Positions 3,232-50,224 of a DNA stretch of 64,000 nt are shown here, piece by piece. The notes under the pieces were generated by a model. The model saw only the letters and a list, made by a program, of their open reading frames with translations, was not told the DNA's origin and searched no databases. The DNA comes from Paracoccaceae bacterium (GTDB lineage Bacteria > Pseudomonadota > Alphaproteobacteria > Rhodobacterales > Rhodobacteraceae): positions 258,111 through 322,110 of the forward strand of contig CBDBPW010000001.1 of assembly GCA_965209045.1 (NCBI GenBank), given 5' to 3'. How positions within the stretch are numbered: position 1 is the stretch's first letter; each line of letters starts with the position of its first letter. The translations under genes and the position numbers were made by a program.

Positions 3232-3897
3232 ATGTTGAAGAGCGCCGCAAACCGCGCCGACAGCCAGAGACACTCGATGGCACAGCGCATCGAACAGGCA
3301 CTCTTGGAAGAGATAGGAACGGGCGACCTCAGGCCGGGACAAAGACTGGACGAGGTGGGCCTCGCAAGGCGATTCGGGGCTTCGCGAACCCCTGTGCGCG
3401 AGGCGCTGTCCCGCCTGGCCGCGCAGGGCATTCTTGTCCAGGGCGAGAGACGGGGTGTCTTCGTTGCGGAATATAGCCGTGAAGAGCTCAGCCAGATATT
3501 CGAGGCCATGCACGAAATCGAAGCCGCATGTGCAAGGATCGCCTCGCAGCGACTCACGTTCCTGTCGAGGTCGGAAATCGAGGCGGCGCAGGCTGCCTGC
3601 GTGGCCGCTGCGGAAGATGGCGACCGACCGAGATACCTGCGCGCAAACGAATCATTACACTTGGCCATCTACCGAGCCACGGGAAATCCGTACATCGCCG
3701 AGATCGCTTCCGAGTTCCGTCGGCGCACCGGCCCCTTCCGGGAAAAGAAGTTCGACACCCGTGACGATCTCCTGGCTTCTGCCCGGAGCCATGAGGAATT
3801 GATAAATGACATTTTCTCCGAGGATTCGGCAACGGCATCCCGAAGCATGCGCAGCCACATGACCGCGAGTTTCCTCGAAACGCTCAAGGCGAACTGA
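3232..3897 (+). CDS. GntR family (FadR/FCD-type) transcriptional regulator
   Basis: Winged-helix segment LDEVGLARRFGASRTPVREALSRLAAQGIL followed by an all-helical FCD-like C-terminal domain. Alternative start ATG 3277 (MAQRIEQ). Confidence 0.85.
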   Translation: MLKSAANRADSQRHSMAQRIEQALLEEIGTGDLRPGQRLDEVGLARRFGASRTPVREALSRLAAQGILVQGERRGVFVAEYSREELSQIFEAMHEIEAACARIASQRLTFLSRSEIEAAQAACVAAAEDGDRPRYLRANESLHLAIYRATGNPYIAEIASEFRRRTGPFREKKFDTRDDLLASARSHEELINDIFSEDSATASRSMRSHMTASFLETLKAN

Positions 3898-38048: not shown

Positions 38049-38903
38049 GTGTCTGGCCTTCCTCCATATGCCTCCTTCACCCAGAAACTCTGGCACTACG
38101 CGTTCCGCGTGATCTGCGGCATTGTCTTCTTCTTTTTGATCGCCCCGATCATCGTGATCATTCCCTTGAGCTTCAACGCACAGGACTTCTTCACCTTCAC
38201 GCCCGAGATGCTTGCCCTTGATCCGGACGGATATTCGCTGAAGCACTACAATGACTTCTTCACCAATCCGGACTGGCAGCAGGCATTGTGGAACTCGATC
38301 CGCATTGCACCGATGGCCACGCTCCTCTCCGTGTCATTCGGGACCTTGGCCGCAATCGGCCTGAGCCAGCCGCACGTGCCCTTCCGGCGGGCAATCATGG
38401 CAATGCTGATCTCTCCGATGATCGTGCCGCTGATCATATCCGCGGCCGGCATGTATTTCTTCTACAGCCGAATCGGACTTCAAGGCTCCTACTGGGGCGT
38501 CGTGCTGGCCCATGCAGCGCTTGGGATCCCCTTTGTCATCATCACGGTGACGGCAACGCTGGTCGGCTTCGACCGGAGCCTCACTCGCGCCGCTGCCAGC
38601 CTGGGCGCGAACCCGGTCACGACCTTTGCCAAGGTCCAGATGCCACTCATTCTGCCTGGCGTGATATCAGGCGGGCTCTTCGCCTTCATCACGTCCTTTG
38701 ACGAGGTCGTCGTCGTGCTCTTTGTCGGTTCGGCGGGTCAGAAGACGCTGCCCTGGCAAATGTTCACCGGGCTCCGCGAACAGATCAGCCCCACCATCCT
38801 TGCGGTTGCCACGATCCTCGTGACGGTTTCGGTCGTCCTGCTTGCCACGATCGAGATTCTCCGTCGCCGCTCCGAGCGGCTGCGAGGCATGTCGCCAGGC
38901 TGA
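38049..38903 (+). CDS. ABC transporter permease (PotC-like)
   Basis: GGAGG is 5 nt before GTG 38049 (track start TTG 38037). EAA loop LTRAAASLGANPVTTFAKVQMP. Confidence 0.85.
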   Translation: MSGLPPYASFTQKLWHYAFRVICGIVFFFLIAPIIVIIPLSFNAQDFFTFTPEMLALDPDGYSLKHYNDFFTNPDWQQALWNSIRIAPMATLLSVSFGTLAAIGLSQPHVPFRRAIMAMLISPMIVPLIISAAGMYFFYSRIGLQGSYWGVVLAHAALGIPFVIITVTATLVGFDRSLTRAAASLGANPVTTFAKVQMPLILPGVISGGLFAFITSFDEVVVVLFVGSAGQKTLPWQMFTGLREQISPTILAVATILVTVSVVLLATIEILRRRSERLRGMSPG

Positions 38904-38995
38904 GAACGTTCCCTGGCACAGGGGCCCAAGCCTGCCGCGATCGACGGTTCCCGCGACGCACGCCGCATTTCCGGTCGCGATTCCCTCTCCGCCAG

Positions 38996-39027
38996 AAAAA
39001 GACGGGCGGGCCGATTGGCCCGCCCGT
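38996..39027 (-). terminator. rho-independent terminator of phasin gene 1
   Basis: Minus strand: ACGGGCGGGCC-AATC-GGCCCGCCCGT followed by CTTTTTC. Confidence 0.75.
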
Positions 39028-39034
39028 TCCGTTC

Positions 39035-39055
39035 GCCAACAGGGAGGAGGTTGGC
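39035..39055 (-). ncRNA. 3' UTR hairpin with a CCUCCUCCC-type loop (cuckoo/CcsR-like motif)
   Basis: Minus-strand RNA GCCAAC-CUCCUCCCU-GUUGGC, 20 nt after the phasin stop codon and directly before the terminator. Confidence 0.5.
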
Positions 39056-39075
39056 AACAGACCGCCGCTTACCCG

Positions 39076-39519
39076 TTACACGGCCACCTTATCCGCGGCA
39101 GCACTCATCTCTTCGGCGGCTTTCTTGACGGCCTTCGAAGCGTCGCTGCCGAGATCCTTGCCGGCGGCAAGCATCAGCTCGACCGTTTCCATCTGGACCT
39201 TCTTCGCGACCTCGGCGAAGGCAGCCAGCGACTCGGCGCTCATTTCGGCCTGCGCCGACGCGAACTCGGCCATCGCCTTGCTGTAGTCGACGGGATCCTC
39301 CTTGGCGTTGGTGACATTGCCGAACTTTCCAATGGATGCCTTGGCCCAGCCGGCGGAAATCTCGGTGGACTTCTCGGCGGCATCCAGAACGACCTTCGAC
39401 ATCTTGTCGGCAACCGAGGCCTGGTTCTTGAACGCGTCATTGAACGCGCCCGCGTCCACGGGGAACGCACCCATCATTTCCTTCACCATCTTGGTGTATT
39501 CGTTTGCAGTCTTCGTCAT
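39076..39519 (-). CDS. phaP: phasin (PHA granule-associated protein)
   Basis: 147 aa from ATG 39519 (GGAGAGAGAAGAG upstream). All-helical, Ala/Lys/Glu-rich. Adjacent to phaC. Confidence 0.85.
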   Translation of the reverse strand: MTKTANEYTKMVKEMMGAFPVDAGAFNDAFKNQASVADKMSKVVLDAAEKSTEISAGWAKASIGKFGNVTNAKEDPVDYSKAMAEFASAQAEMSAESLAAFAEVAKKVQMETVELMLAAGKDLGSDASKAVKKAAEEMSAAADKVAV

Positions 39520-39572
39520 CTCTTCTCTCTCCGTGCCTTGGGAACGGGCGGTGCCCGATTCGTTTTTCAGAT

Positions 39573-39627
39573 GCAGCATACATAGATGCTGCGGTGCAGC
39601 ATTTCAAGGATTTTTTCTGCACTGCAG
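39573..39627 (-). promoter_or_regulatory. phasin-1 promoter with PhaR-type palindromes
   Basis: Minus strand: TTGAAA (39607-39602), a 17-nt spacer TGCTGCACCGCAGCATC containing TGCTGC-ACC-GCAGCA, then TATGTA (39584-39579). Also CTGCAGTGCAG (39627-39617) and GCAGCAT-N6-ATGCTGC (39573-39592). Confidence 0.6.
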
Positions 39628-39914
39628 CAAATTTCTTTTGCTTTCCTTTCAACGCGATGGATGAACCCAACCGTTCTCGCGCCATGGCACGCACTGCGAA
39701 AACGCAAATCGGAACGCTCTCGGCGGCCCCGGCTCCGCATGCTTCGCAATGCGTCACGACCGCCTTCAGCGGCGCGCCTGCATCCCGGAAAGCGTCTCGA
39801 TGGGCACGGCACCACGCCCGTCCGGTCGATCTGTCGAATTGACGTGCATGCCGACAGCGGGGAAGCAGGTCTGAACGGGAGGGCACCGCCCGGGAACGCC
39901 GCGCGTCGCGCATG

Positions 39915-39941
39915 AAAAAAGGCGGGCCCGTCCGGCCCGCC
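39915..39941 (-). terminator. rho-independent terminator of phasin gene 2
   Basis: Minus strand: GGCGGGCC-GGACG-GGCCCGCC followed by TTTTTT. Confidence 0.8.
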
Positions 39942-39952
39942 AGTTTTGGATT

Positions 39953-39973
39953 GCCAACAGGGAGGAAGTTGGC
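39953..39973 (-). ncRNA. 3' UTR hairpin with a CUUCCUCCC loop, paralog of the 39035-39055 hairpin
   Basis: Minus-strand RNA GCCAAC-UUCCUCCCU-GUUGGC, 13 nt after the stop codon. The stem is identical to the phasin-1 hairpin and the loop differs at one base. Confidence 0.5.
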
Positions 39974-39986
39974 GCTCGCAATCGAA

Positions 39987-40499
39987 TTACTGGTTCAAGG
40001 CCACCTTCTCAACGGTGGAGGACGATTCCTTGGCGGACTTCCTGGCGGCCTTCGAGGCGACTTGCGGCGGCGACGCCGGCTGACCAGATTCGGAACGCGG
40101 CTTCCTGGCCGCCTTCGATGCACCTTTGCCTGGATCCTTGTCCGAGGCAAGCATCAGCTCGAAAGTCCTCACCTGGGCCGTCGTCGCCACGTCCGCCAAG
40201 GCTTCCAAGGACCTGGCGCCCAATTCCGCCTGGGCAATCGCGAAATCACTCATGGCCTTGGTGTAGCCGGAAAGATCGTCCTGGGCATTGGTGACATTGC
40301 CGAGTCCTCCGAGGGTGGACTTTGTCCACGTGGCGGAAATCTCCGTCGACTTCTCGGCCGCCGCCAGCACGACTCTCGACATCTTGTCCGTGATGGAAGC
40401 CTGTTGCCTGAAGGCATTCTTGAACATTCCGGCATCCACCGGAAACTCGCCAAACATGCCCTTCATCACGTTCGCGTATCCATTTGCGTAGTCTGTCAT
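39987..40499 (-). CDS. phaP: phasin paralog with an extended Lys/Ser/Pro-rich tail
   Basis: 170 aa from ATG 40499 (GGAGCTGGAGAGAAG upstream). By eye, clearly homologous to phasin 1 over the first ~130 residues (FPVDAG.F..AF..QAS..DKMS.VVL.AAEKSTEIS). Confidence 0.85.
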   Translation of the reverse strand: MTDYANGYANVMKGMFGEFPVDAGMFKNAFRQQASITDKMSRVVLAAAEKSTEISATWTKSTLGGLGNVTNAQDDLSGYTKAMSDFAIAQAELGARSLEALADVATTAQVRTFELMLASDKDPGKGASKAARKPRSESGQPASPPQVASKAARKSAKESSSTVEKVALNQ

Positions 40500-40549
40500 C
40501 TTCTCTCCAGCTCCTGAGACTGGGGCGCCAGGCCCCGTGATTGTGCAGT

Positions 40550-40585
40550 TGCGGCATAGATATATGCCGCAATGCAGCAATTCAA
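40550..40585 (-). promoter_or_regulatory. phasin-2 promoter with the same palindrome architecture
   Basis: Minus strand: TTGAAT (40585-40580), a 17-nt spacer containing TGCTGC-ATT-GCGGCA, then TATCTA (40562-40557). Also TGCGGCATA-N4-TATGCCGCA (40550-40571). Confidence 0.55.
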
Positions 40586-40633
40586 GGGCAAATTCCGCCT
40601 CGCGGGAACTTTCTTTCCTTCAATGACAGAGGG

Positions 40634-42436
40634 TCAGCCGACTTCCACGACTTCCTTCACGTAAGTGCCCGGCGCCGCGGCGAGAACCGGGTGGCTCTGC
40701 GCGGATCCCGGAACCCGCGCCCCGGTCTCGCTGCCGGACCGCGCCTCCAGCCACCGGTTCCAGGCAGGCCACCAGGACCCTTCGTTGAACGTGGCCGTGT
40801 CCTTCCATGCCGCCGCGTCCGCAGGCAGCCCGTGGTTCGTGTAGTGACCGTACTTGTTTCTGGACGGAGGGTTCACGATGCCCGCAATATGTCCCGATTC
40901 GGACAGCAGGAACGTCTTCGAGTTGCTCCCCATCTGCCGGAAGCCCTCGTAGCAGGACGTCCATGCGGCAATGTGATCGGTCTCGCACGCGACAGAGCAG
41001 GCCGGGACCTTGATGTCCCCGACCCGAACCGTCTCGCCCAGGATCTCGAAGCCTTCGCGCGCGAACCGGTTCTGCTGGCAAAGGCCGCGCAGGTATTCCA
41101 TCAACATGGCTGCGGGCAGGTGGGTTCCGTCGCCGTTCCAGTAGAGAAGGTCGAAGGCCGGGGGTGCCTCTCCCATCAGGTAGCTCCGGATGGCCGGGCC
41201 GTAGATCAGGTCGTTCGAACGGAGGAAGCTGAATGTCCGGCTCATGATCCGGTTCTCCAGGACGCCGGCTTGGTTGCACTGCGCCTCGATGGCGTCCACG
41301 AAATCATCCGTCAGGAACACGGTGAACTCGCCCTGGTCCTTGAAGTCAGTGAGCGTCGTGAAGAACGTCGCGCATCCGATCGACTTGTCTCCCCGCTTTT
41401 CCAGCAGCGCAAGCGCGAGGGACAGCGCGGTCCCCCCGATGCAGTATCCCGCAACATTGATCCGCTTCTCTCCGGTGACAGCCTTCACCTCGTCGATTGC
41501 AGTCAGGAAGCCCTTCTCCACGTAATCTGCCATGCCGAAATCGCGATAGCTGGCATCAGGGTTCTTCCAGGACACGACGAAGAGCGTGTAGCCTTGGTCG
41601 ACGATCCACTTGATCAGGCTGTTCTTCGGTTTCAGGTCAAGGATGTAGTACTTGTTGATCCATGGCGGAAAGACGAGAAGCGGCGTCTCGTGCACGGTCT
41701 GCGTCGTTGGAGCGAACTGGATCAGTTCGAGGATCTCGTTGCGAAAGACGACCGAACCTTCGGTGCTCGCGATGTTGGAACCAACCTCGAACGCCTTCTT
41801 GTCAGCCAGCGTCACCATCAGTTCGCCGTCCGACTCCTCGATGTCGCGCACGAGGTTCTCCAGGCCGTCTACGAGGGACTGCCCGTTGGTCTCCACCGCC
41901 TTCGCGAGAGCTTCCGGGTTCGTGCCGAGGAAGTTTGCAGGGCTCATCATGTCGATGATCTGGCGCGTGAAGTAGCGCACGCGCTTGCGGTCGGTCTCGT
42001 TCAGGTCATCCAGGCCGTCGACAGCGTTCGAGATTGCCTCCGCGGAGATCAGGTACTGCTGCTTGATGAAGTTGAAATAGGGATGCTGGGCCCAAAGATC
42101 CCCGGCAAACCGAGGGTCCGCCGGAGTGTTGTCCTCGGGCGGCTCCAGGCTTCCTTGCATCAGGCTCTTCTGTGCGTCGACAAAGTGCGTCAGGGCCTTG
42201 GTCCAGTACGCAACCTGGGTCTCGAACACCTTTGACGGGCTCTCCACGAGTTCCGCGACATACGCCGAAGCCGCCTTGGCGTAGAGTTCCTGGCCCGGGC
42301 CCTGCAGATCGGGATTGGGCGCCTTCTTCCTGGAAATCGCTACAGCCAGGCGCTCTGACAGCTCCTCGATCCTGGCAAGGTTCTTGTGCAACTCCTCCAG
42401 CTGGTCAGGGTCTTCGTCGCTTTCTTTGGTTGCCAT
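40634..42436 (-). CDS. phaC: class I poly(R)-hydroxyalkanoate synthase
   Basis: 600 aa from ATG 42436. Lipase box GYCIGG, and PPWINKYYILDL and WNGDGTHLP motifs. Confidence 0.95.
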   Translation of the reverse strand: MATKESDEDPDQLEELHKNLARIEELSERLAVAISRKKAPNPDLQGPGQELYAKAASAYVAELVESPSKVFETQVAYWTKALTHFVDAQKSLMQGSLEPPEDNTPADPRFAGDLWAQHPYFNFIKQQYLISAEAISNAVDGLDDLNETDRKRVRYFTRQIIDMMSPANFLGTNPEALAKAVETNGQSLVDGLENLVRDIEESDGELMVTLADKKAFEVGSNIASTEGSVVFRNEILELIQFAPTTQTVHETPLLVFPPWINKYYILDLKPKNSLIKWIVDQGYTLFVVSWKNPDASYRDFGMADYVEKGFLTAIDEVKAVTGEKRINVAGYCIGGTALSLALALLEKRGDKSIGCATFFTTLTDFKDQGEFTVFLTDDFVDAIEAQCNQAGVLENRIMSRTFSFLRSNDLIYGPAIRSYLMGEAPPAFDLLYWNGDGTHLPAAMLMEYLRGLCQQNRFAREGFEILGETVRVGDIKVPACSVACETDHIAAWTSCYEGFRQMGSNSKTFLLSESGHIAGIVNPPSRNKYGHYTNHGLPADAAAWKDTATFNEGSWWPAWNRWLEARSGSETGARVPGSAQSHPVLAAAPGTYVKEVVEVG

Positions 42437-42543
42437 TGCTTCAGCCCCTGCGTATTTGCACTTGCAGCATTTGGGGCAATGTAGCGATGCAGGGCTCGAT
42501 TGGCAAAGCGGCGTTTTGGCCCAGGTGCGCGGGGAGTGCGGAT

Positions 42544-43851
42544 ATGCGATACATGCTGACCTACGACACCATGGAGGCGACCAGAAACACCAGCCAGTGG
42601 GTTGGCGCAACCGCAGCCGCAATGGCATCCTACCCTGTCTGGGGTGCCGTGCCGAATCCCTGGATCGGGCTCATGGCCGCATGGGGTGAAGTCACGGAAC
42701 GCAGCTTTGCAAGGATGGCTGCCCGACCCGACTGGGGCATTGATTCCGTGGTCGGTGAGGACGGTCGCGATCATCTTGTCGACATCGAAACGGAAGTCGC
42801 CCGCCCGTTCTGCGACCTGATTCGCTTCCGAGTCCAGGCACGACCGGAACGGCGGCGGCGCATCCTGCTGGTCGCCCCGATGTCAGGACACTATGCAACG
42901 CTTTTGCGCCCAACCGTGCACAGCCTGCTGCCCGATGCCGAAATCTGGATCACGGACTGGCACAACACGCGCGACATCCCGGTCAGCGCCGGGAAGTTCG
43001 ACATCGAGGACTACACTCTCTACCTGTCCGAGTTCATTCGCCATCTCGGCCCGTCGATCAACGTGATCGCCGTGTGCCAGCCCGCTCCGCTGGCGCTTGC
43101 CGCGACGGCCTATCTCGCGGCGGAAGCTCCCGAGGCCCAGCCGCGCACCCTGGCGCTGTTCGGCGGGCCGGTGGATCCGGATGCCGCACGCACCGAGGTC
43201 ACGGATTTCGGGCGCCGCGTGACCATGGGGCAGCTCGAACAGTTCATGATCCAGCGCGTGGGCTTCAAGTATGCGGGCGTCGGGCGACTGGTCTACCCGG
43301 GGCTCCTGCAGCTCGCTTCCTTCATGACCATGAACACGGAGACTCACGTGCGCGCCTTCACGAACCAGATCGTGCTGGCCGCAAAGGGAGAGGCGGCGGA
43401 CCACGACAGGCACAACCGCTTCTACGACGAGTATCTCGCGGTCATGGACATGCCTGCCGAGTTCTATCTGTCCACCGTCGAGCGCGTGTTCAAGAACCGG
43501 GAAATCGCGCGAAACAGGTTCACCGTGAACGGACGCCGTGTCGATTTCGGCGCAATCACCGACGTCGCGGTCAAGACGGTCGAGGGCGAGCAGGACAACA
43601 TCTCCGCCCCGGGACAATGCCTCGCGGCCCTGGACCTGCTCACGGGATTGCCGGCTTCCAAGAAGGCCTCGCATCTTGAGCCTGGCGCCGGCCACTACGG
43701 AATCTTTGCCGGCAGGAGCTGGCGCGACAACATCCGACCCCTGGTTCTGGATTTCATCGATCAGAACGCGCCCTCCCGGCATCGCGCAGCTGCCCGTGAC
43801 GCGCATGGCGGCCAGGAGCCTGCAGAGGGCGCGTCCATCACGTCCAGTTGA
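42544..43851 (+). CDS. phaZ: intracellular polyhydroxyalkanoate depolymerase
   Basis: Divergent from phaC. Has the typical PhaZ N-terminus (Y..ME..R), LLVAPMSGHYATLLR and VCQPAPLALAA. ATG 42544 or 42553. Confidence 0.9.
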   Translation: MRYMLTYDTMEATRNTSQWVGATAAAMASYPVWGAVPNPWIGLMAAWGEVTERSFARMAARPDWGIDSVVGEDGRDHLVDIETEVARPFCDLIRFRVQARPERRRRILLVAPMSGHYATLLRPTVHSLLPDAEIWITDWHNTRDIPVSAGKFDIEDYTLYLSEFIRHLGPSINVIAVCQPAPLALAATAYLAAEAPEAQPRTLALFGGPVDPDAARTEVTDFGRRVTMGQLEQFMIQRVGFKYAGVGRLVYPGLLQLASFMTMNTETHVRAFTNQIVLAAKGEAADHDRHNRFYDEYLAVMDMPAEFYLSTVERVFKNREIARNRFTVNGRRVDFGAITDVAVKTVEGEQDNISAPGQCLAALDLLTGLPASKKASHLEPGAGHYGIFAGRSWRDNIRPLVLDFIDQNAPSRHRAAARDAHGGQEPAEGASITSS

Positions 43852-49362: not shown

Positions 49363-49986
49363 ATGTCCCGCATCCTGCCCGGCATCCTCTGCATGGCCGC
49401 CATCGTCGTGGCATCCAACATCCTTGTGCAGTTCCTGTTCGGTCAATGGCTGACGTGGGGCGCGTTCACCTATCCGCTGGCATTCCTGGTGACCGACGTG
49501 ATGAACAGGCTCTACGGGGCCGCAATGGCGCGCCGCGTCGTGGTGGCAGGGTTCGCGGTCGGCGTGACCTGCTCCATTGTCGGGACGCAGATCGCAGGAG
49601 AATTCGGACCGCTCGTGACATGGCGGATCGCGGCCGGATCCGGTCTTGCCTTCCTGACCGCGCAATTGCTGGACGTGGCCGTGTTCGACAGGTTGAGAGA
49701 CGGGGTCTGGTGGCGCGCGCCGTTCGTTTCGTCGCTGATCGGCTCGGCGGTCGACACGGCAATCTTCTTCACGGTCGCGTTTTCGGCATGGCTTGCATTC
49801 GTCGAGCCCGGAAACGACGTGAGCTGGGCAAACGCCTTTCTGCCGTTGCTGGGGCTTGGGCCCGCCCTGCCGCTCTGGGTGTCGCTTGCGCTGGCCGACT
49901 GGGGCGTCAAGCTTGGAATCGCCGTTCTGGCACTGGTGCCATTTCGCCTCATTGTCGAGAAACTGGGCGGACAAGACGCAAAATAG
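49363..49986 (+). CDS. yhhQ: queuosine precursor transporter (YhhQ/Vut family)
   Basis: VASNILVQ..FTYPLAFLVTDVMNRLYG..DTAIFFTVAF are the typical YhhQ motifs. First ATG is 49363 (track TTG 49342). Confidence 0.8.
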   Translation: MSRILPGILCMAAIVVASNILVQFLFGQWLTWGAFTYPLAFLVTDVMNRLYGAAMARRVVVAGFAVGVTCSIVGTQIAGEFGPLVTWRIAAGSGLAFLTAQLLDVAVFDRLRDGVWWRAPFVSSLIGSAVDTAIFFTVAFSAWLAFVEPGNDVSWANAFLPLLGLGPALPLWVSLALADWGVKLGIAVLALVPFRLIVEKLGGQDAK

Positions 49987-49991
49987 TTTGA

Positions 49992-50106
49992 CAGCTGCGG
50001 ATTCCGTGCCAACCTCCCCGCAATCGAAACAGGCGAAAGGAGGTGGTCCAGTGTCCAGAGCGATATTGGAGAGAGGTGTCCGGACAGTCGGGAGACCCAT
50101 CAGCTG
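49992..50106 (+). ncRNA. candidate structured leader or riboswitch-like RNA (family unassigned; weak cobalamin-like features)
   Basis: CAGCUG (49992-49997) can pair with CAGCUG (50101-50106). CCAACCUCC (50009-50017) pairs with the SD GGAGGUGG (50039-46). It contains CCCCGCAAUCGAAA, CAGUG-hairpin-GAGAGG and AGUCGGGAGACCC (50086-50098), which resembles a B12 box. Confidence 0.3.
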
Positions 50107-50187
50107 AAGGGCAGACCCTTCGCACAAGCACTCCTGATTGGGCCGCCGGTCATCCCGGTCCCTAACTGGCCCATCTCCAAGACACTC

Positions 50188-50224
50188 GGAAGGGTCGCCT
50201 CGTCGGCGGCCCTTCTTCTTTCCT
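50188..50224 (+). terminator. rho-independent terminator
   Basis: GGAAGGGUCGCC-UCGUC-GGCGGCCCUUCU, a 12-bp stem including two G-U pairs, followed by UCUUUCCU. Confidence 0.7.

Follow-up and report, generated by a model that had tools for sequence, protein, structure and literature searches.

A conserved anti-Shine-Dalgarno hairpin in the 3' untranslated regions of Paracoccaceae phasin genes, a candidate small RNA from putatively PhaR-controlled transcripts

A loop-displayed CCUCCUCCC motif works as an anti-Shine-Dalgarno (anti-SD) sequence in small RNAs (sRNAs) of the CcsR and NfeR1 type (PMC4615179, PMC8034643), and the cuckoo RNA family was defined by two to four adjacent hairpins with linkers of at most 10 nt, each hairpin carrying this motif (PMC4615179). 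Cuckoo RNAs of Rhodobacteraceae were reported only in CIN1, beside the OG1 (DUF1127) gene (PMC4615179), and CcsR RNAs, which have two motif hairpins of the CCUCCUCCC type (PMC8034643), are released from a 3' untranslated region (3' UTR) by RNase E (PMC4615179, PMC8034643). In Sinorhizobium meliloti, loss of the sRNA MmgR increases the levels of phasins (PMC7143759, PMC12542648), and the regulator PhaR binds the same motif at the mmgR promoter as at phaP1 and phaP2 (PMC12542648). Here we describe an anti-SD hairpin module that lies directly past the stop codons of two phasin genes, likewise designated phaP1 and phaP2, in a 64,000-nt stretch of a Paracoccaceae bacterium genome (contig CBDBPW010000001.1, positions 258,111 to 322,110; hereafter the window), and we compare it with these systems and with a phasin-derived RNA of Rhodobacter sphaeroides.

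Both phasin transcripts of the window contain a structured region between stop codon and terminator, in which a hairpin with CCUCCC as the core of its loop precedes an intrinsic terminator (Table 1). The hairpin begins 20 nt past the stop codon of phaP1 and 13 nt past that of phaP2, and each element shares the 3' end and the terminator of its mRNA; no sigma-70-like promoter was found in 38800-40750. Relative to shuffled sequences, both 3' UTRs fold favourably (z = -3.5 and -3.1), and the motif stays single-stranded in the loop. A degenerate search for the 21-mer hairpin returned exactly two occurrences in the window, with none expected from 100 shuffles, whereas the short motif YTCCTCCC alone was not enriched (5 found vs 5.7 expected); the signal is the motif combined with hairpin, terminator and phasin context, not the short motif by itself. 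An earlier reading of this DNA made from its letters alone (the sequence-only reading) had placed and spelled both hairpins exactly, each with its own terminator downstream, and had argued from the divergence of the surrounding sequence that selection acts on the hairpin itself. The divergence is borne out: the two proteins are only 55% identical, and the similarity of the two UTRs is limited to the hairpin and the terminator stem.

The sampling of related loci was anchored on the phasin protein and not on the motif, and yielded 80 loci from Paracoccaceae reference genomes and metagenome-assembled genomes, with Boseongicola, Silicimonas, Tropicimonas, Roseovarius, Paenirhodobacter, Rhodobacter, Dinoroseobacter and Shimia among the genera; named relatives, including Cereibacter, were reached by a second protein search, and 78 of the 80 loci were evaluable for 3' UTR counts. 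CCUCCC occurs within 90 nt of the stop codon at 65 of these 78 phasin loci; taken over all 90-nt windows of these loci, it is present in 2.0%. The core is enclosed by a perfect stem of 6 bp or more in 67% of cases vs 14% with shuffled flanks, none of 200 shuffle sets reaching the observed mean, and the core sits in a hairpin loop of the minimum-free-energy (MFE) fold at 58 of 78 loci. The hairpin counts were taken from MFE parsing, a relaxed scanner and a covariance model, as a parser with a 13-nt loop cap undercounted them (53/80). The stems vary among genomes (GCCAAC/GUUGGC, CACCGG/CCGGUG, GACGCCGAU/GUCGGUGUC and CGCGCCC/GGGCGCG, for instance), whereas the loop core CCUCCC does not; among the 62 elements retained below it is the sole invariant part of the loop.

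On trimmed elements, MAFFT followed by RNAalifold yielded no helix other than that of the terminator, since the variable loop length puts the first stems out of register. Covariation was tested by imposing the pairing scheme of the window on the unfitted MAFFT alignment and then by building a covariance model. In the structure-blind MAFFT alignment, 82.5% of cells pair, compared with 38-47% when the partners are slid, and double-sided changes are found at all 17 pairs, a result matched by 0 of 500 shuffles. The model-fitted alignment of the 62 elements, which favours the structure by construction, has 86% of cells paired and 167 double-sided changes against 54 ± 7 expected. The covariance model itself, R1, gave 62 matches of at least 37.5 bits over the window and the 80 loci, every one directly past a phasin stop codon; these include both copies of the window and a second, phaP2-type copy in its closest relatives, loci L001 and L002, and the best score elsewhere in about 470 kb was 21 bits. 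The same phasin-only picture emerged from an independent rule-based scanner for a motif hairpin plus terminator, run over 939 kb with both strands counted. In the window, L001 and L002 alike, both phasin paralogs carry the element, and the identity of the phaP2 3' UTR among the three (90%) exceeds that of the coding sequence (CDS; 80-81%) and of the intergenic region past the terminator (60-62%). The paralog-specific linkers are kept, which argues for purifying selection rather than recent gene conversion. Aligning the phasin 3' UTRs across relatives thus revealed both conservation and covariation, and the earlier proposal of selection on the hairpin is upheld by its persistence in orthologous UTRs with an invariant CCUCCC core and covarying stems. 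The hairpins are far outside chance expectation and form part of a genuine RNA module, structured, conserved and specific for Paracoccaceae phasin 3' UTRs.

These data also bear on whether the hairpin has any specific function at all, as it lies directly upstream of the terminator and is palindromic in the DNA, and might serve as the accessory hairpin in a terminator made of two, or be a repeat element or a DNA palindrome bound by a regulator. An asymmetric loop that stays invariant while the arms vary with compensation is the opposite of what a DNA operator would show, and is unneeded for termination. In addition, the element is not repeated elsewhere in the window or in the 470 kb of loci, and conservation is higher in the phaP2 3' UTR than in the phaP2 CDS, and we consider an absence of function hardly credible.

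Two variants of the 3' UTR architecture were noted among the relatives. The phasin 3' UTRs of Rhodobacter xanthinilyticus and Paenirhodobacter (L084 3476-3484; L072, L021 and L028) hold two anti-SD motifs, an unpaired UUCCUCCCG right past the phasin stop codon being present besides the loop motif. In two Celeribacter loci (L041 and L047), the phasin 3' UTR has no separate motif hairpin, and the terminator hairpin contains CUCCUCCU (GGGCUCCUCCU...GGGGAGCCC), possibly a fused or degenerate version of the element.

We compared the element with the described anti-SD RNAs, of which the sequence-only reading had taken cuckoo and CcsR as the family concerned. A scan of the whole window against Rfam 15, the cuckoo-type models included, gave no match at gathering thresholds, and the matches below threshold (CcsR1, ar14, SorX, SorY and suhB) served only as leads. 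CcsR1 (RF02791) reached 24.4 bits on the phaP1 UTR (E = 1.6e-4 in a 96-nt search) and 11.0 bits on the phaP2 UTR, compared with a gathering score of 65.3; ar14/NfeR1 (RF02344) scored 19.4, 15.7 and 11.9 bits (gathering 58.8), SorX (RF02784) 19.0, 16.4 and 15.5 bits (gathering 46.6), and suhB/MmgR (RF00519) 14.8 bits on the phaP2 UTR and 11.6 bits on the phaP1 UTR (gathering 41), in an alignment that does not put the motif of the phasin UTRs on the motif of the model. The phaP1 hairpin does contain CCUCCUCCC, with the first C as the closing base of the stem, and the phaP2 hairpin has CUUCCUCCC, which agrees at 8 of 9 positions. Nevertheless, each phasin element has one motif hairpin only, its second hairpin being a plain GC terminator devoid of the motif, and its context is a phaZ-phaC-phaP cluster instead of a DUF1127 gene.

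It could still be argued that the element is a diverged member of cuckoo/CcsR, or of MmgR/alpha-r8, which landed beside phasin genes. The loop motif is held in common, the weak Rfam matches point to these very families, and the phaP2 loop with its closing base, CUUCCUCCCU, agrees at 9 of 10 positions with the MmgR 10-mer. Against such a descent stand scores that are all far under gathering, a single motif hairpin where two to four are expected, the location away from any DUF1127 gene, and the MmgR model, which places the motif between hairpins and not in a loop; we regard it as very improbable. On account of the low Rfam scores, the single motif hairpin and the phasin context, the membership in cuckoo/CcsR that had been proposed does not hold: the element stands outside cuckoo/CcsR, ar14, MmgR and SorX, and constitutes a separate RNA family that is absent from Rfam 15.

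The R1 matches extend to relatives with named species. The Cereibacter sphaeroides assembly L081 carries the element at 3478-3542 (50.6 bits) with the loop CUUCCUCCCU, Rhodobacter xanthinilyticus has a match of 48.8 bits, and the C. changlensis match, at 30.8 bits, is below the cutoff and keeps a UCCUCCC loop; all three loci have the canonical phaZ / phaC-phaP-phaR layout. In R. sphaeroides 2.4.1, an RNA named 0381_3' was described in 2014 as the 3' terminus of the phaP (RSP_0381) mRNA, including its Rho-independent terminator, with a length of 88 nt by RNA-seq and about 75 nt on northern blots (PMC4179960). This RNA was low in the wild type, where its half-life was 28 min, and accumulated strongly in RNase J and RNase III mutants, in which both level and half-life were altered (PMC4179960). 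It was enriched after terminator exonuclease (TEX) treatment, yet no promoter activity was found directly upstream, and its authors called its generation "mysterious" and "obscure" (PMC4179960). The text of that paper contains neither 'Shine' nor 'CCUCC' and gives no motif, conservation or function for 0381_3'. Counted back from the U-tract in L081, 88 nt start about 8 nt past the phasin stop codon, and 0381_3' therefore spans both hairpin and terminator; its locus differs from the window in genus, in having a single phasin gene and in having phaR immediately downstream. Judged by these sequences, 0381_3' and the element of the window are very probably one and the same. A literature search, incomplete in coverage, returned no later work on 0381_3' and no description of an anti-SD motif in phasin 3' UTRs. 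Stable 3' fragments, which the sequence-only reading had predicted, are thus documented by northern blot and RNA-seq only for the R. sphaeroides phaP ortholog (PMC4179960).

The behaviour of 0381_3' also raises the question of whether the loop addresses a protein instead of a nucleic acid. An RNA-binding protein, for example a DUF1127/CcaF1-like protein, Hfq or an RNase, might bind the CCUCCC loop and thereby control the half-life or the 3' processing of the phasin mRNA, or be titrated by it, with no base-pairing to a target. The unusual stability of 0381_3' and its response to the loss of RNase III and RNase J (PMC4179960) would suit such a role, as would the binding of CcaF1 to CcsR RNAs, which have the same loop motif (PMC8034643), and protein-binding hairpins, too, typically combine an invariant loop with a variable stem. 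However, any protein partner is hypothetical, and the motif is one whose accepted action in related sRNAs is SD pairing. We judge protein recognition unlikely as the explanation, though the two modes of action are not mutually exclusive.

A further line of evidence comes from the promoters of the host genes. In bacteria that accumulate polyhydroxybutyrate (PHB), phasin mRNAs generally rank with the most abundant transcripts. In the window, sites matching TGCRNYGCA occur only 7 times in 64 kb, and two of them, 28 bp apart, are located at the phaP1 promoter; the promoters of phaP1 and phaP2 align well, with variant boxes of phaP2 at the aligned positions. For S. meliloti, a PhaR motif with the core YGCRNYGCR and a two-box layout at phaP1 and phaP2 have been reported (PMC12542648), and the boxes of the window's phaP1 promoter agree with both. 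These predicted PhaR-type boxes belong to the promoters of the host phaP genes and not to a promoter of the 3' RNA itself. As the phaP promoters carry PhaR-type boxes, the link between granule formation of polyhydroxyalkanoates (PHA) and translational control that the sequence-only reading had drawn is plausible. In S. meliloti, a predicted PhaR-binding motif is also listed upstream of the DUF1127 gene SMc02051 (PMC12542648 Table 3), the 5' UTR of which was reported to give rise to CcsR/cuckoo RNAs (PMC8034643). More than one class of anti-SD RNA may accordingly be under PhaR control, a connection made in neither of the two papers.

Taken together, we favour, with a probability of roughly 0.6, the interpretation that the phasin element is a 3'UTR-derived anti-SD small RNA produced from PhaR-controlled phasin transcripts and functionally parallel to MmgR. 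Each phasin mRNA would end in a module of about 62-64 nt, composed of the anti-SD hairpin with its CCUCCC core, a short linker and the gene's own terminator, which would persist as a stable 3'UTR-derived RNA of about 70-90 nt and would also be displayed on the full-length mRNA. The loop is proposed to pair with SD regions of the GGGAGG/GGAGG type in other mRNAs and to lower their translation. Lacking a promoter of its own, the 3' RNA would be carried by the PhaR-controlled phaP transcripts, and its level should consequently rise once PHB granules titrate PhaR. Granule formation might in this way be coupled to post-transcriptional control, as is the case for MmgR in Sinorhizobium, a stand-alone anti-SD sRNA repressed by PhaR/AniA. 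The sponging of ribosomes, which had also been suggested, is mechanistically unlikely: the loop resembles the anti-SD tail of 16S rRNA and would therefore bind the SD sequences of mRNAs, not ribosomes.

Several observations weigh against this interpretation. The evidence for expression and processing comes from the R. sphaeroides ortholog; for the organism of the window we infer processing, trans action and the identity of the targets, and L081, used in place of strain 2.4.1, may differ from it at the phaP 3' position. Targets of a phasin 3' RNA are putative in every species; 0381_3' was described with no function assigned, and its build-up in RNase mutants (PMC4179960) would also fit a decay intermediate. 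Because almost any strong SD will pair with an anti-SD loop, complementarity says little about a specific target. The element is moreover absent from about 10-12 of the 78 loci, including those of Haematobacter, Mesobaculum and Tranquillimonas, and second, tandem phasin genes without an anti-SD hairpin were seen downstream of the gene that bears the element in L071 (3156-3533), L074 (3154-3531) and L076 (3148-3564), so that it is dispensable in some lineages.

A candidate target of the proposed sRNA is the phaR mRNA, which was evaluated at loci where phaR follows phaP. The hexamer GGGAGG, the exact complement of the CCUCCC core, occurs in 33 of 58 phaR translation initiation regions (TIRs), in none of 81 phasin TIRs and in 2 of 81 background genes. 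The median energy of the loop duplex is -13.45 kcal/mol for the phaR TIR and -6.6 kcal/mol for the phasin TIR (paired p = 2.5e-5), compared with -9.0 kcal/mol for the background genes (n = 81), each represented by its best candidate start. However, the 16S tail forms a good duplex with the phaR TIR too (-11.0 kcal/mol), and phaR may therefore simply have a strong SD. Pairing of the loop with phaR from its own genome was not significantly better than with permuted partners (621/5000), and the association of the element with GGGAGG at phaR (26 of 40 loci with the element vs 7 of 18 without; Fisher p = 0.09, uncorrected for phylogeny) is suggestive only. We also noticed that the SD of these 33 phaR genes, among loci L012-L084, is an extended GGGAGG(R) about 25 nt ahead of the start codon (for example L081 3585-3605), and that a PhaR-type box (TGCACTGCA-like) lies directly upstream of this SD, which suggests, from sequence, a very short phaR leader. 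No phaR was found in the window or in L001-L011, where it was sought; a scan of the window's own TIRs gave several SDs of the GGGAGG type and no unique target.

From these comparisons we derive a more specific proposal, namely that Paracoccaceae carry their counterpart of MmgR within the phasin transcript itself, as the 3' RNA, and that phaR mRNA is its main target in a double-negative feedback. PhaR would repress phaP and with it the 3' RNA, while the CCUCCC loop would pair with the GGGAGG SD of phaR, an unusual one, and block PhaR synthesis. We regard this circuit as possible but doubtful. If true, the double-negative loop of PhaR and RNA would make the onset of PHB granule formation switch-like, and the long-unexplained 0381_3' RNA of R. 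sphaeroides would be explained by phaR targeting as well.

The same duplex calculations speak to cis-acting autoregulation, in which the 3' UTR element would act on the phasin mRNA that carries it. Phasin TIRs do carry GGAG, which is able to pair with CUCC, the rise of phasin levels after MmgR loss in S. meliloti (PMC7143759, PMC12542648) is compatible with such a role, and autoregulation by 3'UTR sRNAs is well established (PMC7398697). Yet the duplexes between a loop and its own TIR are weak, with a mean of -7.7 kcal/mol vs -8.1 kcal/mol for cross-genome permuted pairs, 4959 of 5000 permutations being at least as good. They are also weaker than the pairing with background genes and much weaker than that with phaR, and the full complement of the core is missing from all 81 phasin TIRs. 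Weak pairing that does not co-evolve disfavours a specific mechanism of the icaR or OppZ kind, and we hold autoregulation to be decidedly unlikely.

The host genes belong to a PHA cluster in which phaP2 and then phaP1 lie downstream of phaC on the minus strand, and ABC-transporter permeases converge on the cluster from the opposite side. Neither window phasin has a Pfam or NCBIfam match at the thresholds used; PF09361 (Phasin_2) is present in many of their relatives, homologs 72-77% identical to phaP1 are named 'phasin, PhaP' by NCBI, and the identity of both proteins as phasins rests on these named homologs and on the pha gene context. PhaP2 has a C-terminal extension of about 25 residues rich in K, S, A and P (…KPRSESGQPASPPQVASKAARKSAKESSSTVEKVALNQ; window 39990-40100, minus strand), which is absent from PhaP1 and of conserved length in L001 and L002. 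The longest open reading frames (ORFs) of phaC (40634-42628, minus strand) and phaZ (42172-43851, plus strand) start too far upstream and overlap by about 450 nt. The PhaC_N domain begins at residue 171 of the longest phaC ORF; the true start is probably internal, a plausible site being the methionine of MATKESD with GGAG in front of it.

Table 1. Features of the phasin 3' elements, of the pha cluster and of the 50-kb leader-like region (coordinates of the window)
Feature	Position	Strand	Basis
Hairpin 1, GCCAAC-CUCCUCCCU-GUUGGC, core CCUCCC unpaired	39035..39055	-	sequence, fold, 21-mer search
Hairpin 2, GCCAAC-UUCCUCCCU-GUUGGC	39953..39973	-	sequence, fold, 21-mer search
Intrinsic terminator 1, 11-bp GC stem + U-tract	38997..39027 (stem 39027-39002)	-	fold, terminator search
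Intrinsic terminator 2, 8-bp GC stem + U-tract	39915..39941 (stem 39941-39921)	-	fold, terminator search
Element 1, anti-SD hairpin + linker + terminator, predicted 3'UTR-derived RNA module	38999..39060	-	model R1, 62.6 bits, E = 1e-13
Element 2, anti-SD hairpin + linker + terminator	39915..39978	-	model R1, 62.1 bits, E = 1.3e-13
phaP1 CDS, 147-aa phasin, host of element 1	39079..39519	-	ORF; homologs 72-77% identical; phaC/phaZ context
phaP1 stop codon TAA	39078-39076	-	
phaP2 CDS, 170-aa phasin paralog, host of element 2	39990..40499	-	55% identity to phaP1; orthologs in L001 and L002
phaP2 stop codon TAA	39989-39987	-	
phaC (PHA synthase)	40637..42628	-	PF07167 PhaC_N, E = 4e-73
phaZ (intracellular PHB depolymerase), divergent from phaC	42172..43848	+	PF06850 PHB_depo_C, E = 1e-85
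phaP1 promoter region, two PhaR-type boxes flanking a CTTGAA -35-like hexamer	39579..39630	-	motif search
phaP1 PhaR-type box TGCAGTGCA	39618-39626	-	TGCRNYGCA
phaP1 PhaR-type box TGCACCGCA	39590-39598	-	TGCRNYGCA
phaP2 promoter region with variant boxes CCGCGAGGCGG; TGCATTGCG	40541..40606	-	alignment to phaP1 promoter
TTGACA box then hairpin	49985-50215	+	sequence, fold

The sequence-only reading had further pointed to an 11-mer at 50007-50017 as a relative of the phasin loops. The 11-mer is present, but the kinship was rejected, as the CCUCC is paired within a different structure: CCAACCUCC (50009-50017) pairs with the downstream AGGAGGUGG (50042-50050), which makes it the 5' arm of a hairpin sequestering a long SD-like sequence and not a loop-exposed motif. 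The stretch CGAAAGGAGGUGGUCCAG is almost the complete reverse complement of the 16S rRNA 3' tail, and would amount to a 'super-SD'. The region has a weak match to Rfam RF01867 CC2171, a Caulobacter sRNA (28.2 bits; gathering 75), and is probably an SD-sequestering leader or an sRNA, unrelated to the phasin element.

The phasin element adds a new structured RNA family with strong covariation support, and provides a sequence-level explanation and a family-wide context for the R. sphaeroides RNA seen in 2014. If the proposed function is true, a regulatory RNA residing in phasin 3' ends would signal granule formation to the translation machinery with no need for a separate gene. The circuit, in which PhaR would repress phaP together with its 3' RNA and the RNA may in turn repress phaR, is testable in a tractable model organism and would be of relevance for the engineering of PHB yield and granule number.

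With respect to the known systems, the phasin element resembles cuckoo/CcsR RNAs in displaying a pyrimidine anti-SD motif in hairpin loops on variable stems, in lying in an mRNA 3' UTR, the source of CcsR RNAs in R. sphaeroides, and in its occurrence in Alphaproteobacteria including Rhodobacteraceae. Cuckoo/CcsR RNAs, however, have two to four motif hairpins, often in tandem clusters, beside a DUF1127 gene and under an RpoHI/HII promoter, whereas the phasin element combines one motif hairpin with a plain terminator, keeps only CCUCCC invariant and is linked to PhaR. NfeR1 (alpha-r14, RF02344; PMC10746234) likewise presents CCUCCUCCC anti-SD loops, but differs in its three motif hairpins, its response to nitrogen and its status as an independent gene; NfeR1 and NtrBC form a double-negative loop (PMC10746234), a precedent for mutual repression between such an sRNA and its own transcriptional regulator. 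SorX of R. sphaeroides is derived from a 3' UTR as well, and the string CCUCCCUGUUGG followed by a GC-rich terminator is common to SorX and the window elements; it differs in its host gene, which encodes an OmpR-type regulator, in its stress-responsive role and in a motif that is not modelled in a hairpin loop. The anti-SD sequence in the icaR 3' UTR of Staphylococcus aureus, and OppZ and CarZ of Vibrio, are encoded in 3' UTRs and regulate translation of the transcript they come from through pairing with an SD or TIR, a pairing specific to their own mRNA, in contrast to the weak pairing without co-evolution at phasin TIRs.

The closest functional parallel is MmgR/SuhB (alpha-r8), an anti-SD sRNA in which a motif of the UUUCCUCCCU type is followed by a terminator. 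It is tied to PHB, its mutants over-accumulating PHB and phasins, and its promoter is bound and repressed by PhaR/AniA, the class of regulator whose boxes precede the phasin genes of the window. MmgR, which has been studied in Rhizobiales and Sphingomonadales, is nonetheless a stand-alone gene with its own promoter and, in the Rfam model, a single-stranded motif between hairpins, whereas the phasin element begins 13-20 nt past a stop codon, uses the mRNA terminator and is not an independent gene. The comparison suggests that Rhodobacter-type bacteria have solved the control of PhaR, sRNA and phasin differently from rhizobia, which employ the stand-alone MmgR.

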